Source of the DNA: Geobacter sulfurreducens PCA
Lineage (GTDB): Bacteria > Desulfobacterota > Desulfuromonadia > Geobacterales > Geobacteraceae
Assembly: GCF_000007985.2 (NCBI RefSeq)
Contig: NC_002939.5
Span: forward strand, 180,001-212,000
DNA length: 32,000 bases
Direction of reading: 5' to 3'
Positions 14,936 through 21,858 of the stretch are shown in pieces (positions within the stretch are counted from its first letter, which is position 1; each line of letters begins with the position of its first letter). Position numbers and translations under genes: made by a program. The notes beneath the pieces were generated by a model that saw only the letters and a list, made by a program, of their open reading frames with translations, had not been told where the DNA came from and made no database searches.

Positions 14936-15865
14936 CTATGGCCTGATCTCGACCACCGTCCCGTTGGGCGCCGCCTCTGCAATTTCCTCAATCTCTTCGT
15001 CGGTTACGGCGATGCACCCCTGGGTCCAGTCCACCTCGGCGTGCGCGGCGCCGACCTGCGAGAGCCCGTTCTTGATGCCGTGAATCATGATGTCCCCGCC
15101 CGGAGAGACTCCCATCTCCCGTGCCCGCTTTTTATCTTTTTCGTTCGGATAGGAGATGCGCAGGGACAGGTGATAGCGGCTGCCCTTGTTCCTCCCCTCG
15201 ATGACGTAGGACCCCTCCGGGGTCTTGTTGTCGCCCTGCCGTTCCTTGGGGCCCACCGGGTTGCCCCCCAGGGCTACCTTGTAGGTCCTGATCACCTCGC
15301 CCATTGAGAGCAGCGACAGCCTGCGGTCTTTCTTTTCAATCAGGATTTTGTCCACCGCCCCCTTCCGGGTGGCAATGGCAAATACCTTTTGCTCGAGGAT
15401 TTTAATCGTTTCCCGCAGGGCGGCGATGTCCTTGTTTCTGTCGTCGAGATCCTGCCTGAGCGCTTCGATGCGGGCCTGCTGCGCGGCAATGGTGCCGTCC
15501 TTGAGCACGACGGTGTTGATGCCGAAGATCATCCGCTCGCTGTCCTGCCGGTACCTGCTCTCCGGGAACTCCCTGACCAGCTGTTCGAAGCACTCCAGGG
15601 CTTTCTGGTAATCCTTGTGTTCATTCCTGGGATAGGCATGGATGAATCCCTTTTCGAACAGCACCCGGTCTTTCGCGGCGGGATGGGTTTCGCCAATACG
15701 GGTATATGCGTCGAGGGAGGCGCTGTAGTTCCCCTGGGAGAACAGGTCGTTCGCCTCCTGGAAGATCGACGCGGCCCGATGGTGGCTGCAGCCGCAGAGA
15801 AGCAGCATGCAGCAGATGCAGACCGGGAAAAAGCGCGCAGCCATCCTGTGTCGTGTGAATGTCAT
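14936..15865 (-). CDS. YafK/DpaA-like L,D-transpeptidase-fold lipoprotein with N-terminal TPR-like and coiled-coil regions
   Basis: Lipobox LLLCGCS. Catalytic-domain motifs are GDNKTPEGSYVI, YHLSLRISYPNEKDKKRA, GGDIMIHG and WTQGCIAVTDEEIEEI (COG3034/YafK pattern). Confidence 0.75.
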   Translation of the reverse strand: MTFTRHRMAARFFPVCICCMLLLCGCSHHRAASIFQEANDLFSQGNYSASLDAYTRIGETHPAAKDRVLFEKGFIHAYPRNEHKDYQKALECFEQLVREFPESRYRQDSERMIFGINTVVLKDGTIAAQQARIEALRQDLDDRNKDIAALRETIKILEQKVFAIATRKGAVDKILIEKKDRRLSLLSMGEVIRTYKVALGGNPVGPKERQGDNKTPEGSYVIEGRNKGSRYHLSLRISYPNEKDKKRAREMGVSPGGDIMIHGIKNGLSQVGAAHAEVDWTQGCIAVTDEEIEEIAEAAPNGTVVEIRP

Positions 15866-16020: not shown

Positions 16021-16323
16021 CTATTTCCTCATGGATTTCTGGAACACGGCATCGGCCTTTTTCGCCTTTTCATCGGCGAGCCGTTCCCGTTCCTGGGCGG
16101 CCTTTTCGGCGCTTTCGGCACGGGTGGTGGCGTCCTGCGCCTCCAGTTTTGCCGCGTCTGCCGCGGCTTTGGCGGCCTGCGCTTCCTGCAGCGCCTGTTC
16201 GATCTTCGCGTCGAGCAGGCGCTGGTCGGCCTGTACCTGCTCCATTTCCCTGGATGTCGCGCAGCCGGCCAAGGCAGCGGCGAGAATCAGCGTCACCGAG
16301 ATTACCGATAGTCTTGTCTTCAT
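16021..16323 (-). CDS. Lpp-like alanine-zipper lipoprotein with a C-terminal ...MRK
   Basis: ATG 16323 has AGGAGGT upstream. MKTRLSVISVTLILAAALAGC provides the lipobox. The rest is an A/E/K/Q-rich helical repeat that ends in FQKSMRK-stop. E. coli Lpp ends in YRK. Confidence 0.7.
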   Translation of the reverse strand: MKTRLSVISVTLILAAALAGCATSREMEQVQADQRLLDAKIEQALQEAQAAKAAADAAKLEAQDATTRAESAEKAAQERERLADEKAKKADAVFQKSMRK

Positions 16324-16421: not shown

Positions 16422-17729
16422 TCAGATGGTCCTGCCGGGTTCGATCACGATGCCGTCTATGTCAAGGTCGATTTTCAACCGTTTGGCCGCATCCCTGGCC
16501 TTGCCGTCGTCACTGAACGGGCCGGCGATGATCCGGTAGCTCGAATCCTTCGACAGCACCCGGGCCGGGATCGGCGGCCCCTGATGGTTGATGATGGCGG
16601 CCATCCTCCGGGCTTCCATTTCGTCGCGCATGTCGCCGACCATGACATACCATGCGTCCAGCTTGAGCGCCGGCAGCTCCGGCCTGCCATACAGCGCTGC
16701 CGGGTGCTCGATTCTCAGGGGCGAGGCCGCCTCTTGCTCCGCTCCCGGCCTCAGCTCCAGAATAGGGACGGGAATCCCCCGGGCCTCGGCCTGGACTTGT
16801 TTGATCTTGTCCCAGTCAAGCGTTCGCGCCGATGCGCTTTCAAAGGATTTCAGCTTCGCATGGATCCGGGCCAGTTCACTGGTGCCCGAATCCTCCAGGG
16901 GGGTGTGGGCTTCCATGTAGAGCACGCCGTCGCGCTGGCCGATGAGATAGGGCTGATTGACTATGAGCACCGGGGTGTTGACCGCCGTATCCCGGAACAG
17001 CACCTCGATATGTTCCGGATAGAGCCTCATGCAGCCATTGGATGCCTTCAGGCCGATGCTGGCCGGTTTGTTGGTGCCGTGGATCAGGTAGCCCGACCTG
17101 CTCAGATAGAGCGCGTAGTCTCCCAAGGGGTTCTCCGGCCCCGGCGGTACCCGGGCAGGGAGAATGTCCCCCTTTTTCCGGTGATCTTCGGCGATGGAGG
17201 CGGGCACATACCAGGTCGGCCGGCTGGCCTTGCGCGCCACGCGTGTCGGTCCCTGGGGGGTGGGCCGCTCCTTGGTCCCGATTCCGACCGGGTAGGTCGA
17301 CACGGCCAGGGCTCCGCCGTTTTCCTTGAACTGAAAGAGCCGCATGGTGGCCAGGTTGATCACGATTCCCTTCCGGGGGGCATCCGGCAGGATGAAGTTC
17401 AGGGGCAGGGTAATGCGTTGGCCTGCCTTGGGCAGCCACACATCAACCCCCGGATTGGCTGCGCTGATGGCATTGATGCCCACGCTGAAGTGCCGCGCCA
17501 CATCCGGCAGCGTATCCCCCTCTTCGAGTTTGACCAGCCCCAGTCGGCCGATGACGTCAGTTCCCGGCGCAACCTGGAACCGGTTCCGTTCAAGTTCGCT
17601 TTCAGGGTGGACCGGTGAGAACCAGGCTTGCCGGGTGGCGGCACAGCCCGTGAGGGCAATGACGCAGATGCCCAGGACAGCGGAACGAAGCCAGTAGGCC
17701 ACGGTTGGCAGCGTAACGATTCTGCGCAT
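16422..17729 (-). CDS. L,D-transpeptidase (YkuD/ErfK/YbiS/YcfS family) with LysM and C-terminal SPOR domains; lipoprotein signal
   Basis: Signal and lipobox VIALTGCAA. LysM-like GDTLPDVARHFSVGINAISAANPGV. Catalytic YLIHGTNKPASIGLKASNGCMRLYPEHIEVLF. SPOR-like YVMVGDMRDEMEARRMAAII...YRIIAGPFSDDGKARDAAKRL. Confidence 0.85.
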   Translation of the reverse strand: MRRIVTLPTVAYWLRSAVLGICVIALTGCAATRQAWFSPVHPESELERNRFQVAPGTDVIGRLGLVKLEEGDTLPDVARHFSVGINAISAANPGVDVWLPKAGQRITLPLNFILPDAPRKGIVINLATMRLFQFKENGGALAVSTYPVGIGTKERPTPQGPTRVARKASRPTWYVPASIAEDHRKKGDILPARVPPGPENPLGDYALYLSRSGYLIHGTNKPASIGLKASNGCMRLYPEHIEVLFRDTAVNTPVLIVNQPYLIGQRDGVLYMEAHTPLEDSGTSELARIHAKLKSFESASARTLDWDKIKQVQAEARGIPVPILELRPGAEQEAASPLRIEHPAALYGRPELPALKLDAWYVMVGDMRDEMEARRMAAIINHQGPPIPARVLSKDSSYRIIAGPFSDDGKARDAAKRLKIDLDIDGIVIEPGRTI

Positions 17730-17756: not shown

Positions 17757-17870
17757 TGAAAATAAACAAGCCGGGGCCGAATATTCTGTGATAGTTCGGC
17801 AACCCGGCTGTCTCGGTGAGACCCTGTAGGCTTTCCGCCCCATCCTCGCGGATGGTTTAGTATTATCGTT
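17757..17870 (-). promoter_or_regulatory. GEMM-I-type cyclic-dinucleotide riboswitch, proximal copy (aptamer plus intrinsic terminator)
   Basis: The minus-strand RNA reads ACUAAACCAUCCGCGAGGAUGGGGCGGAAAGCCUACAGGGUCUCACCGAGACAGCCGGGUUGCCGAA. It matches the GEMM-I pattern: a GNRA-capped hairpin, G(C/G)AAAGCC, and CAGCCGGGUUGCCGA. The 3' aptamer strand can instead pair with UUCGGCCCCGGCU, which is followed by UUGUUUAUUUU. Confidence 0.8.
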
Positions 17871-17957
17871 TATCACCAGCAGTTGTCGTGCCGTGTTCGT
17901 TGTCGATGGGAACCGGCACGATCCGGTGCCTGTTCGGGCGCACCTCTCACTGACTCG

Positions 17958-18068
17958 CGCAACAAAAAAGCCGGGGCCGATATCCTGTGATATTTCGGCA
18001 ACCCGGCTGTCTCGGTGAGACCCTGTAGGCTTTCCGCCCCATTCTCGCGAATGGTTGAGTATTGTCGT
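17958..18068 (-). promoter_or_regulatory. GEMM-I-type cyclic-dinucleotide riboswitch, distal copy (aptamer plus intrinsic terminator)
   Basis: This is about 90% identical to the proximal copy: ACUCAACCAUUCGCGAGAAUGGGGCGGAAAGCCUACAGGGUCUCACCGAGACAGCCGGGUUGCCGAAAUAUCACAGGAUAUCGGCCCCGGCUUUUUUGUU. Confidence 0.8.
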
Positions 18069-18091
18069 CTATCGCAACTGATTTTTCCGCA

Positions 18092-18120
18092 TGGATAGCA
18101 CTGCAATGAGAATTTGTCAA
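18092..18120 (-). promoter_or_regulatory. Candidate sigma70 promoter driving the tandem riboswitch leader
   Basis: On the minus strand: -35 TTGACA (18120-18115), 17-nt spacer, -10 TATCCA (18097-18092). Confidence 0.5.
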
Positions 18121-18313
18121 CATTTTTCCGGAGTTCGCCGGTGCCGCACACCGATTTCAGAGCGCGACCCATCGGCTGCCGTTGCGGGTAGACCGTCCGG
18201 GTGCGGAGCGTGCGTTGCCGGGACATTGGGCCTTGACTGACAAACGCGGAGGATTTTAAGCTTGATGGTGGCGTCGCTTCAACGCCACCTGCCAAACGGG
18301 ATAGGGGAGATTT

Positions 18314-18986: not shown

Positions 18987-20192
18987 TCAAGTCCCGCCCT
19001 TGCAGGCAGAGGAGCCATCCGCGTGCAGGTGCCTGAAGAAGAGATAGACCAGCGGCGGCAGAACGAGCAGGTAGGCTGCGGCGAGGAGACGGAAGGTGCC
19101 GCCCGCGCCAGCGGCATCGGCATAGCGTCCCACCAGGGGGGCGGTGCAGGCGAACAGGAGCCGGAAGCAGAGGGACTGCAGCGACAGCATCCCGGCCCGG
19201 TTGGCCGAGGGGATTTCGTCCTGGACCAGGTGGAGGAGGAGTGGCCCCCGCATCCCCCGCATGGCCGTGAGCAGGTAGTAGAAGAGAAAGCTCCATGCCC
19301 CCGCCGTCCAACCCAGCCCCAGGTAGCCGACCCAGACCAGCAGCACCAGGAGCAGGAGCATCGGGCGGTCCCCCAGCCCGGCCCGCACCCGGTGGCTCAG
19401 TACGGCAAAGAGGGCCACGACCAGGTTAGCCCCGGCCCAGATCGGGCCGAAGGAGGCGAGGGGCACGCCGCTGTCGCGCATGTAGGGCTGGATCAGCCAG
19501 ACCGGATAGAAGGAGGCGAGGCCGAGCGCGATGCTGAGCAGGATGGTGGCGCGCAGGCGCCGGTTGCGGACGAAAACGTAGCTGGCCGAGGCAAGTGCCT
19601 CCTTCAGATGGCTGGCCTGGTGGTGCCGCTCCCGTGCGGGCTCGGTCAGTCTGCGCGTCAGGAAAAGGGCCAGCACCCAGACCCCCACCTGCAGAAAAAA
19701 TGGAAGAAGGGGATAGCGGGCATAGAGGACGCCGGCAAAGAGCGCCCCGGCTGCCTCACCGGTCTGGCCGAAAAAGGTGGAGCGCCCTTCGTGGCGGGCA
19801 TAGGCCGTTTCTTCCCCCTGTTCCTTGAGGGATTCATAGAGGAGTGCACTGTCAGTGCCGCTGATGAACGAGGTGGCAATGCCGAGGAGGATCTCGGCGA
19901 TAAGGACGTCCCTGAACGATGTGGCCGCCGTATAGACCGCCCATCCCGCGATTCCCAGGGCCGAGGCCGCGGTCAGGGCCGCCCGGTAGCCGATCCGGTC
20001 GCTGATATAGCCGGAGGGGTATTCCATCACCGCCATGGCCACGGCGAAGATGCTCTGCAGAAGCAGGATTTCGGACAGGCTCAGCCCGATCTGGTCCTTC
20101 CAGAAGAGCGTGATGACCGCCATGGGGAACAGGGTCATCTGCAGGAAGGAGAAGGCATAGAGCAGGGGAATGTTGCGCCGGAGGGAGGTCAT
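18987..20192 (-). CDS. MFS transporter
   Basis: About 400 aa of hydrophobic protein with MFS-like loops (GYISDRIGYR). The ORF track extends to 20207. I prefer ATG 20192, because the duplicated copy at 21314-21523 shares sequence only from about 10 nt upstream of this ATG, and the upstream small ORF stops in an ATGA overlap here. Confidence 0.8.
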   Translation of the reverse strand: MTSLRRNIPLLYAFSFLQMTLFPMAVITLFWKDQIGLSLSEILLLQSIFAVAMAVMEYPSGYISDRIGYRAALTAASALGIAGWAVYTAATSFRDVLIAEILLGIATSFISGTDSALLYESLKEQGEETAYARHEGRSTFFGQTGEAAGALFAGVLYARYPLLPFFLQVGVWVLALFLTRRLTEPARERHHQASHLKEALASASYVFVRNRRLRATILLSIALGLASFYPVWLIQPYMRDSGVPLASFGPIWAGANLVVALFAVLSHRVRAGLGDRPMLLLLVLLVWVGYLGLGWTAGAWSFLFYYLLTAMRGMRGPLLLHLVQDEIPSANRAGMLSLQSLCFRLLFACTAPLVGRYADAAGAGGTFRLLAAAYLLVLPPLVYLFFRHLHADGSSACKGGT

Positions 20193-20284
20193 GGCTGTGT
20201 AGAACATTTCTGGCAGAACATTTCACCGGCAGCGGCGGGTGCCGCCAGCACCAGCAGCACCAACCCGAGGATCGTGTCCCTCAT
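20189..20284 (-). CDS. Candidate 31-aa small hydrophobic/secreted peptide translationally coupled to the MFS gene
   Basis: GGAGAGGAAAGGA lies upstream of ATG 20284. The translation is MRDTILGLVLLVLAAPAAAGEMFCQKCSTQP. Its TGA overlaps the MFS ATG (ATGA at 20192-20189). It is below the ORF-track size cutoff. Confidence 0.35.
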   Translation of the reverse strand: MRDTILGLVLLVLAAPAAAGEMFCQKCSTQP

Positions 20285-20366
20285 GGTCCTTTCCTCTCCC
20301 GTCCCAGGATTACGGCCGGCTTGTCAAAGGACTCGTTCAGCCCCCCCTGCGCACCGTTTTCCCCCT

Positions 20367-20883
20367 TCAAGCAACCCTCCGGTAGCGTGCCGTCATGACC
20401 CGCAGCCACGTGCCGTCGCCGGTCAGCATGTACGAGGTGAGAGTGCGCTCGTCGCGGCTCTTGAGCTCGATCACGTCCCGGAACGCCGTCATTTTCCCTT
20501 CGGCGGAACAATCAGGGCCCTCGCTGTTTAGGGTCAAGGTCTTCCCGTCCTTGTCCAGTTCGCCGTCATACACCCAGAGATGGGTCATCATCGACCCGAC
20601 CCAGGTTCCCACATACCGTTGCTTCTGCGGATTATAGCCTAGGGTAAGCAGCATGGTCGCGTCTCCCCCCCCCGGGCATCCCGCCCGTTCCCTCGGCCAG
20701 AATCCAGAGACCTCCCACGGGGCGAACGGTTTCGCTCCCCGTGCATGTTTCGGAGGGTTTGTCCGGTTCAATCAGTGCTTCGGCTTCGTAGGTCCAGTCG
20801 CCGACCAGTTGCTGCAGCCAGAGGTGCTCTTGCTGGGGCTCGGCCTGCATCGTCGGCTCATGAATTTTTTCGCCTTGCGACAT
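20367..20883 (-). pseudogene. DUF1579 domain protein interrupted by a +1 frameshift in a G9 homopolymer
   Basis: Two overlapping ORFs (20632-20919 and 20367-20771) together give MSQGEKIHE...WLQQLVGDWTYEAE...GLWILAEGTGGMPGGG / DATMLLTLGYNPQKQRYVGTWVGSMMTHLWVYDGELDKDGKTL...YRR. The junction is the C9 run at 20665-20673 (G9 on the coding strand). Removing one G gives a 171-aa ORF. Confidence 0.7.
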
Positions 20884-20950: not shown

Positions 20951-21352
20951 CTATTCCCTGCTGCGATCCTCCCGCCGGCGGATTGCGAACAGCGGCTCGA
21001 AGATGAACTCGTCCCGGCAGACGGGACATCTGCCGGGCGGGGTGAGGCGGTCGCGTTTGGAGAACACGAAGCCGCAGGAGCGGCACTCGGCTGGGGTTAT
21101 TTCCAGGAACTCCCCGGTGGCGTGAATGCTGAGGCGGATATGCTCCAGGTGGCTGTAGACATCTTTTTCCGTCATGTGTGCCTGCCCCGAGATATCCCTG
21201 GCCGAGAGGGGGTGGTTGCGGATCAGCGTGATGACGGCACGGCGTGCCGTTTCCTGCGCGGGACGCGGGACAGCCGGCTTTCTCGCCCTCCGGTTCACGG
21301 GGCCTTGCTCCGCCGGTAGCTGATCCGGTCTCTGAAGTAGCCGGAGGGGCAT
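20951..21352 (-). CDS. HTH plus zinc-ribbon transcriptional regulator (COG3357-like)
   Basis: RRAVITLIRNHPLSARDISGQAHMTEKDVYSHLEHI (HTH), then PAECRSCGF...PGRCPVCRDEFIFEP (CxxC...CxxC). The true start may be GTG 21298, because the first 18 codons lie inside the duplicated MFS fragment. Confidence 0.6.
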   Translation of the reverse strand: MPLRLLQRPDQLPAEQGPVNRRARKPAVPRPAQETARRAVITLIRNHPLSARDISGQAHMTEKDVYSHLEHIRLSIHATGEFLEITPAECRSCGFVFSKRDRLTPPGRCPVCRDEFIFEPLFAIRRREDRSRE

Positions 21353-21523
21353 TCAATCACCACCATGGCCACGGCGAAGATGCCCTGCAGGAGCAGGATC
21401 TCGGACAGGCTCTGTCCGATCTTCCAGAAGAGCGTGATGACCGCCATGGGGAACAGGGTCATCTGCAGGAAGGAGAAGGCATAGAGCAGGGAGATGTTGC
21501 GGCGGAGGGAGGTCATGGCTGTG
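21314..21523 (-). pseudogene. Duplicated 5' fragment of the MFS transporter gene
   Basis: About 90% nucleotide identity to 19984-20199, with a 6-nt deletion. It translates as MTSLRRNISLLYAFSFLQMTLFPMAVITLFWKIGQSLSEILLLQGIFAVAM..., compared with MTSLRRNIPLLYAFSFLQMTLFPMAVITLFWKDQIGLSLSEILLLQSIFAVAM... in the intact gene. Confidence 0.8.
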
Positions 21524-21858
21524 CCGGGCTCTCGGGTGGTACGGTGTGGTTCGGGAGCGTGCGGGTGATGACAAGGTCTCTCTTGGTGGAGGTCATTGAT
21601 TCCGCTATCGTGTTCATGGTGCAGCTTCTTTCCGGACACCAAATCAGTATCCTGCCAGGATTTCAATTGCTTCGGGTTCGCCTGTCAGAGCGCAGGGGCG
21701 CCCCGAGGGTTCTGGCCTTTGCTGGCTTATTGGTAGCCAGTTCCACATGGACGAATGGATTTGCCATGATCTGATATCCCTTTTGTCTGCGCTGAACCGT
21801 CTTGATTCAACTATATCTCGTTCCGGGGGAAGGTCACCACATTGATTGGCTTATTGGA

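Follow-up and report, generated by a model that had tools for sequence, protein, structure and literature searches.

The GSU0183-GSU0182-GSU0181 operon of Geobacter sulfurreducens PCA is preceded by two almost identical riboswitches. The operon lies on the minus strand of a 32 kb stretch of genomic DNA that was analysed as a whole (the window; positions refer to it unless stated otherwise). Its leader contains two GEMM-I elements, a distal one (GSUR3002, also named GSU0183a) and a proximal one (GSUR3001, also named GSU0183b). A reading made earlier from the letters of the DNA (the original prediction) had described them as tandem riboswitches, each with its own terminator and with an adenine at the position that selects the ligand. 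Our analysis makes it very probable that they are two complete, independently acting, transcription-terminating GEMM-Ib ON switches in series, i.e. switches responding to cGAMP (3',3'-cyclic GMP-AMP). Since both elements have been annotated and described in print before, the find, though correct, is not a novel one; the original prediction recovered a published element, including its ligand class and its mechanism. What is added here is a comparative picture of the array, of its promoter and of the conservation of the distal and proximal types.

The element links the cGAMP signal, which governs growth of Geobacter on Fe(III) oxide particles, to an operon probably concerned with lipoprotein anchoring. 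This operon is among the most strongly cGAMP-dependent transcription units of the organism.

The two aptamers

When the whole window was scanned against Rfam 15, only two matches exceeded the gathering score. Both were to the c-di-GMP-I model RF01051 (gathering score 35 bits), named after cyclic diguanylate (c-di-GMP), and both were on the minus strand: the proximal match at 17795-17871 (47.4 bits, E 1.9e-6) and the distal match at 17994-18070 (41.1 bits, E 6.4e-5), each spanning the complete model (1-87/87). The membership in GEMM-I that had been proposed is thus borne out for both copies. Including helix P1 the distal aptamer extends over 17989-18073, with GAUA (18073-18070) pairing with UAUC (17992-17989), and the proximal aptamer over 17790-17874, with GAUA (17874-17871) pairing with UAUC (17793-17790). 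The two copies had been estimated to be about 90% identical and about 200 nucleotides (nt) apart. This agrees with the repeat finder, which returned a direct repeat of 110 nt with 87% identity and a start-to-start distance of 199 nt, and with a gapped MAFFT alignment, in which the copies showed 92% column identity over 131 nt.

Each copy has a GNRA-capped helix and a second helix at a three-way junction, and the pairing is kept across homologues. The GCGA loop expected for the capped hairpin is present in both copies; the stem that had been quoted with it, CCAUCC-GCGA-GGAUGG, is however that of the proximal copy only, the distal copy having CCAUUC-GCGA-GAAUGG. This single stem difference between the copies is compensatory (U-A in the distal, C-G in the proximal copy). 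The conserved segments GCGGAAAGCC and CAGCCGGGUUGCCGA occur in both copies as predicted, and the ligand-pocket segments GCGGAAAGCC and GUUGCCGAA are invariant or nearly so in 53/53 aligned homologous copies. Apart from position 20, which is treated below, the pocket is that of GEMM-I, with a GCxAAAGCC segment and the C in ...GCCGA that pairs with G-beta. Helix P3 (GGGUCUC-ACC-GAGAC with an AG bulge) contains no 11-nt tetraloop-receptor motif. A tetraloop receptor in the second helix is a feature of the original GEMM description for members with a GAAA loop; members with a GYRA loop commonly do without it, so its absence is compatible with membership.

Support for the helices came from counting pairs in the alignment of the 53 homologous copies, using a structure in which the Rfam helices were supplemented by P1 (GAUA 5' with UAUC 3') and by an apical extension of P3. 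Over the 25 pairs 95.8% of the cells were paired, compared with 37-47% when the partners were slid by 1-3 columns. At one pair of P2 (columns 33-40) 23 sequences have U-A and 27 have C-G, pairing being 100%; most of the remaining pairs do not vary and therefore carry no information.

With the Vc2 c-di-GMP-I riboswitch of Vibrio cholerae the two copies share the covariance-model family, the three-helix junction, the GNRA-capped helix and the conserved cores GCxAAAGCC and CAGCCGGG...GCCGA. They differ from it in two respects. Vc2 has a G at position 20 and binds c-di-GMP, whereas an A is found at the equivalent position here, and P3 is much shorter in the GSU0183 leader (4 inserted nt compared with 16 in the consensus) and without the 11-nt motif.

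Terminators and switching mechanism

As had been claimed, each aptamer has a hairpin and a U-run downstream of it. The distal intrinsic terminator (17961-18008, minus strand) consists of a hairpin at 17969-18008 and the U-run UUUUUUGUU (-23.4 kcal/mol, z = -2.7); the proximal one (17759-17808, minus strand) of a hairpin at 17770-17808 and the U-rich tail UUGUUUAUUUU (-24.5 kcal/mol, z = -6.0). Both hairpins have the form GCCGGG..GCCGA..//..UCGGC-CCCGGC, lie well below shuffled controls in energy, and are followed by UUUUUUGUUG in the distal and UUGUUUAUUUU in the proximal copy. The 5' arm reads CAGCCGGG-UU-GCCGA(A)AUAUC and the 3' arm GAUAUCGGC-CCCGGC. A consensus scanner missed both terminators, their loops and bulges being outside its rules. 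The same scanner reported two terminators on the plus strand; these look spurious, as they are the reverse complements of the aptamer and terminator hairpins.

The re-pairing that the original prediction had postulated was found as well: the 5' arm of the terminator (CAGCCGGGUUGCCGAAAUAUC) is at the same time the 3' strand of P3 and P1, about 20 nt being common to the terminator and aptamer folds. The two folds are therefore mutually exclusive. Nearest-neighbour energies of the terminator state and of the ligand-free secondary structure of the aptamer were -44.9 vs -15.4 kcal/mol for the distal copy and -48.3 vs -18.0 kcal/mol for the proximal copy. The terminator state is favoured by about 30 kcal/mol, as expected of a kinetic switch that is OFF by default; termination should therefore be the default, and read-through should need an aptamer stabilised by its ligand.

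That the ligand favours read-through, as had been proposed, is supported by the shared strand and by the mechanism of two homologous cGAMP riboswitches, those of pilM from G. metallireducens and of pgcA, which are terminator-based ON switches. The architecture of the pilM switch, in which the terminator sequesters the ligand-pairing cytidine, has been worked out experimentally, and in the pgcA switch mutations that weaken the terminator bypass the need for cGAMP. The GSU0183 copies share with the pgcA riboswitch (Gs1761, GSUR3008) and with that of pilM the A at the equivalent of G20, the terminator-based ON switch and the sequestration of the 3' strand of the aptamer, including the ligand-pairing C, by the terminator. 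Gs1761 and the pilM element, for which binding data exist, are single switches before cytochrome or pilus genes; the GSU0183 leader, unlike them, has two switches in series before genes for peptidoglycan and lipoprotein cross-linking.

In the mechanism that we propose, transcription would begin at a TTGACA / TG-TATCCA promoter upstream of the distal copy. As each aptamer emerges, cGAMP produced by the Hypr-GGDEF enzyme GacA would lock P1 and the base of P3 and so hold the CAGCCGGGUUGCCGAAAUAUC strand. Without ligand this strand would pair with ...GAUAUCGGCCCCGGC to form the far more stable terminator hairpin, and RNA polymerase would stop at the U-run behind it.

Ligand selectivity

GEMM-Ib aptamers are distinguished by an adenine at the equivalent of Vc2 G20, or Gs1761 A14. 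The original prediction, aligned by eye, had placed such an adenine in both copies, and Infernal alignments put it at 18060 (distal) and 17861 (proximal). In the consensus the corresponding model position, 11, is an unpaired G adjoining the first helix on its 5' side; next to it come two pairs, C-G and U-G here compared with G-C and C-G in the consensus. We take model position 11 to be Vc2 G20; this mapping is supported by the homologues, in which no other core column alternates between A and G. G20 of Vc2 recognises the Hoogsteen face of one of the c-di-GMP guanines, and A14 of Gs1761 pairs isosterically with the adenine of cGAMP.

The identity of the locus with a published one allows genetic data to be brought in. 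Hallberg et al. 2019 (eLife 8:e43959, PMC6456294) list GSU0183a/b in the cGAMP regulon as tandem GEMM-Ib riboswitches and state that tandem arrangements are found for several of the 17 GEMM-I riboswitches that G. sulfurreducens possesses. At least 10 gene ends, those of both riboswitches included, coincide with their entries at a constant offset of 180002, so that the window corresponds to 180003-212002 of PCA or of an identical strain. In the PCA table of that study GSUR3001 is at 197761-197876, GSUR3002 at 197961-198075, GSU0183 at 197731-196424, GSU0182 at 196325 (start) to 196023 (end) and GSU0181 at 195867-194938; the offset also fits GSU0179, GSU0180, GSU0184, GSU0185, GSU0187 and dbpA (range GSU0179-GSU0189). 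Locus, operon and tandem description are the same, and we found no difference. A full-text literature search for GSUR3001, GSUR3002 and GSU0183 gave no mentions beyond the eLife paper and its preprint. PMC8835794 states that Kellenberger 2015 examined the cGAMP-binding activity of the 13 GEMM-Ib leaders of G. sulfurreducens, that of GSU0183 included.

The RNA-seq data of PMC6456294 show that in a gacA deletion the transcripts of GSU0183, GSU0182 and GSU0181 change by -4.14, -4.64 and -4.42 (log2 relative to wild type), i.e. they are 16-25 fold lower, while GSUR3002 and GSUR3001 themselves change by -2.75 and -3.0. Deletion of esnD, which encodes a c-di-GMP synthase, changes the locus by +0.7 to +1.0, the three genes rising by +0.7 to +0.9 (about 1.7-fold). 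Because the gacA deletion switches the operon off and the esnD deletion does not, cGAMP rather than c-di-GMP appears to be its signal. Together with A20 these genetics support the assignment of cGAMP that had been made.

It might be argued that the aptamers answer c-di-GMP, or that they are bispecific and the operon reads both dinucleotides. The family matched is, after all, represented by the c-di-GMP-I model, and the PCA annotation speaks of a 'cyclic diguanylate-responsive riboswitch'. Moreover, two A20 aptamers, the Vc2 G20A variant and the natural Cbe 1-2, accept either dinucleotide by means of a protonated adenine; A20 is therefore necessary but not sufficient for selectivity. We nevertheless consider this explanation unlikely. 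Loss of the c-di-GMP synthase raises expression of the operon and loss of the cGAMP synthase lowers it; those A20 aptamers of Geobacter that have been tested prefer cGAMP about 1000-fold; and the relatives with mixed arrays described below have G20 in one copy per array (except for one doublet with G in both copies), suggesting that the A/G state is under selection. The two aptamers of the GSU0183 leader would accordingly be selective for cGAMP.

Function of the tandem arrangement

A leader with two or more aptamers of one class is called pseudo-cooperative if each aptamer has an expression platform of its own. For c-di-GMP-I, Sherlock et al. 2022 (PMC9481103) counted 347 doublets and 12 triplets; tandems with separate expression platforms are classed by them as pseudo-cooperative, with more digital control. 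The GSU0183 leader is of the same kind as these and as the tandem GSU2885a/b, i.e. it has two complete switches each with a terminator. At GSU2885a/b, deletion of gacA leads to a loss of RNA by the second switch.

Loss of gacA lowered the first gene downstream of a tandem leader (GSU0183, 1945, 1948 and 2885; n = 4) by a mean of 3.92 log2 units (15-fold), compared with a mean of 2.23 log2 units (4.7-fold) for the single leaders (n = 9; Mann-Whitney test, one-sided, p = 0.038; computed from the table in PMC6456294). This is suggestive, but not proof, of a larger dynamic range of tandem leaders. RNA polymerase would have to pass two checkpoints, and read-through would then be roughly the product of two occupancies. 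Compared with a single switch, basal expression would thus be lower, the dynamic range wider and the response steeper. The steeper dose response that the original prediction expected of two switches in series, and that we infer for GSU0183, agrees with the pseudo-cooperative reading and with the range data.

Some observations weigh against two independent cGAMP switches with this mechanism, in addition to the bispecific A20 aptamers mentioned above. Covariation is thin, changes on both sides being found in only 4/25 pairs of the highly conserved aptamers. The proximal U-tract UUGUUUAUUUU is interrupted, and the -10 box of the promoter is weak, with only 3/6 matches to the consensus. Finally, the distal GSUR3002 RNA itself falls 6.7-fold in the gacA deletion, a drop that attenuation acting only downstream of the aptamer would not lead one to expect. 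Presumably terminated transcripts decay rapidly, or there is an added effect on the promoter or on initiation.

For comparison, the RNA of the single pgcA riboswitch falls only 1.6-fold in the same deletion and the pgcA gene 7-fold (PMC6456294).

Conservation of the array and its spacer

The conservation of the array was followed in 80 orthologous loci, which were collected from species-representative genomes other than that of G. sulfurreducens by means of back-translated GSU0183 protein patterns. Rfam scans covered 60/80 of these loci and a custom covariance model 80/80. A two-copy array lies directly upstream of the gene in 21 further genome loci, a three-copy array in two (L004 and L009) and a single copy in seven (L022, L023, L039, L041, L058, L062 and L072), all of them from Geobacterales-like genomes. 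The tandem layout is thus found in 23 related arrays, and every orthologous copy that we examined has a terminator hairpin with a U-run behind it.

Distal and proximal copies can be told apart across species. Distal copies of different species are 86% identical to each other and proximal copies 88%, compared with 83% between the distal and proximal copies of one array; at a diagnostic P1 position an A is present in 22/23 distal and a G in 21/23 proximal copies. Since the two types are conserved separately, the duplication must be old and both copies have been kept. This argues against the idea that only one copy is functional and the other a decaying duplicate, so that the leader behaves as a single switch. 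The 87-92% identity of the copies might be taken to reflect a recent duplication, and the interruption of the proximal U-run a loss of function. Yet both copies exceed the Rfam threshold and have P1, P2, P3 and a terminator, their sole stem difference is compensatory, the separate conservation of the types extends over 23 arrays from several genera, and in the gacA deletion RNA abundance declines in steps along the leader. A decaying duplicate is thus very improbable. The design with two switches is old and maintained.

The spacer between the switches (17875-17960, minus strand) is conserved across species as well. In an alignment of spacers it contains a helix GUGCCG...CGGCAC, for which relatives have AUGCCG...CGGCAU, so that the end pair covaries. 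We do not regard this helix as a defined element, because RNAalifold retained only 5 base pairs (bp) of it with weak support, and a search of the spacer for conserved structure or a small open reading frame gave nothing beyond this weak 5-bp helix. Close spacing of the copies and conservation of the sequence between them would also suit two aptamers that cooperate on one shared expression platform in the manner of the glycine riboswitch. Such cooperation is hardly to be reconciled with a strong hairpin and U-run of its own behind each aptamer, here and in the orthologues, nor does the poorly supported helix of the spacer favour it, and we consider it extremely improbable. With two separate switches, the spacer may serve to insulate the folding of two near-identical sequences.

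A conserved motif, found as weak hits of the custom covariance model, lies upstream of the transpeptidase gene in five metagenome-assembled genomes from outside Geobacter (CSP1-8, Deferrimicrobiaceae and others; L013:818-923, L016:2824-2925, L017:2846-2951, L021:1912-2017 and L028:2753-2866). It keeps the 3' half of the aptamer (GCCUACAGGGUCUCACUGAGACAGCCGGGUUGCCGA), the 5' half being unrelated (CACUAAGAUAUAGAUGGACCGAUCACAGGGGUCAGGUCAGG...). In 4/5 cases there is no terminator and the motif runs straight into a ribosome-binding site (GAGAAAGG + AUG). It gave no Rfam match as GEMM-I even at E <= 1, and RNAalifold found no convincing common fold for the five sequences. The motif may represent a variant or a relic, or else another regulator.

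Mixed A20/G20 arrays in relatives

Among the 53 genome-derived copies position 20 is an A in 51 and a G in 2. Both G20 copies belong to three-copy arrays, one with the order A-A-G (L004:2425-2949) and one with A-G-A (L009:2425-2946). When metagenomes were scanned for aptamers of this type with G20, 14 contigs were obtained. With the custom model, these were found to include seven doublets with A20 in the distal and G20 in the proximal copy (L081, L082, L084, L088, L089, L090 and L094), two A-G-A triplets (L087 and L093), one G-G doublet (L092) and some fragments. An orthologue of the transpeptidase gene follows directly downstream in the five contigs that are long enough (L082, L084, L087, L088 and L093), and each copy of the mixed A/G arrays has its own terminator. 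Natural single-nucleotide changes between A and G at the selectivity position therefore occur inside the arrays.

Since both types of switch are ON switches and stand in series, a mixed array would need both cGAMP and c-di-GMP for expression. The sequences thus suggest that the mixed arrays of uncultured Geobacteraceae may act as a two-input AND gate requiring both second messengers. The table of natural logic gates in the 2022 review of tandem riboswitches (PMC9481103) contains no cGAMP/c-di-GMP pair, and among the leads obtained here the mixed A/G arrays of relatives might be the only new one. They offer a testable natural system for the integration of two second messengers in one leader. 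Tentatively, and with somewhat more doubt than confidence, the GSU0183 leader itself may be regarded as one state of a modular, evolvable cyclic-dinucleotide switch array instead of a simple redundant doublet. If so, the A/A state of PCA would be a cGAMP-only setting that has been rewired elsewhere by a single nucleotide.

Promoter

The TTGACA-17-TATCCA promoter that had been predicted upstream of the distal copy is present on the minus strand at 18092-18120, with the -35 box TTGACA at 18120-18115, a spacer of 17 nt and the -10 box TATCCA at 18097-18092. A TG at 18100-18099 makes this an extended -10 box (TGCTATCCA, 18100-18092). The consensus scanner, which also looks for sigma-70 promoters, did not flag this one, its -10 box deviating too far from the consensus. 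In an alignment of about 25 orthologous leaders, the -35 box TTGACA(A) and an A-rich block upstream of it (AGAAAAAT) are nearly invariant and in the same place, and -10 boxes resembling TAAAAT or TATGAT are found at equal distance. It is therefore likely that the promoter is real, and transcription would start near 18085. A hit that the scanner did report, ACGACA-16-GATAAT, overlaps conserved 5' sequence of the aptamer and looks spurious.

Further upstream, the gene for the HAD hydrolase GSU0184 (start 18314, plus strand; 198316-198963 in the PCA table) is transcribed divergently. A strong inverted repeat (GGTGGCGTCGCTTCAACGCCACC, 18262-18295) is located just 5' of its ribosome-binding site.

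The regulated operon and neighbouring genes

All genes of the operon are on the minus strand. GSU0183 (16422-17729), preceded by the Shine-Dalgarno sequence AGAAAGG at 17750-17744, encodes an L,D-transpeptidase lipoprotein of 435 amino acids with YkuD (Pfam, 2.7e-21) and SPOR (7.7e-12) domains. GSU0182 (16021-16323) encodes an Lpp-like outer-membrane lipoprotein (Pfam Alanine_zipper, 3.8e-14), the translation of which has a lipobox LAGC and a C-terminal lysine (...MRK). The last gene of the regulated operon, GSU0181 (14936-15865), encodes a second L,D-transpeptidase lipoprotein (309 amino acids, YkuD and TPR; Pfam YkuD 1.2e-17), so that GSU0182 is flanked by two YkuD L,D-transpeptidases. Hallberg et al. 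2019 (PMC6456294) called the genes of this operon uncharacterised. By analogy with the Ldt enzymes and Braun's lipoprotein of Escherichia coli, they probably serve together to attach the outer membrane to peptidoglycan via a Braun-type lipoprotein.

In the gap between GSU0182 and GSU0181 a 'predicted RNA' is listed in PMC6456294 (15866-15941, minus strand; PCA 195868-195943). Nowhere else in the operon is the read density as high (242 in the wild type, 9 in the gacA deletion).

Outside the operon, GSU0188 (21295-21666, minus strand) repeats about 40 N-terminal residues of the MFS transporter GSU0185 (MTSLRRNI.LLYAFSFLQMTLFPMAVITLFWK). The likeness, between 21244-21700 and about 20050-20530, points to the 5' end of GSU0185 having been partially duplicated.

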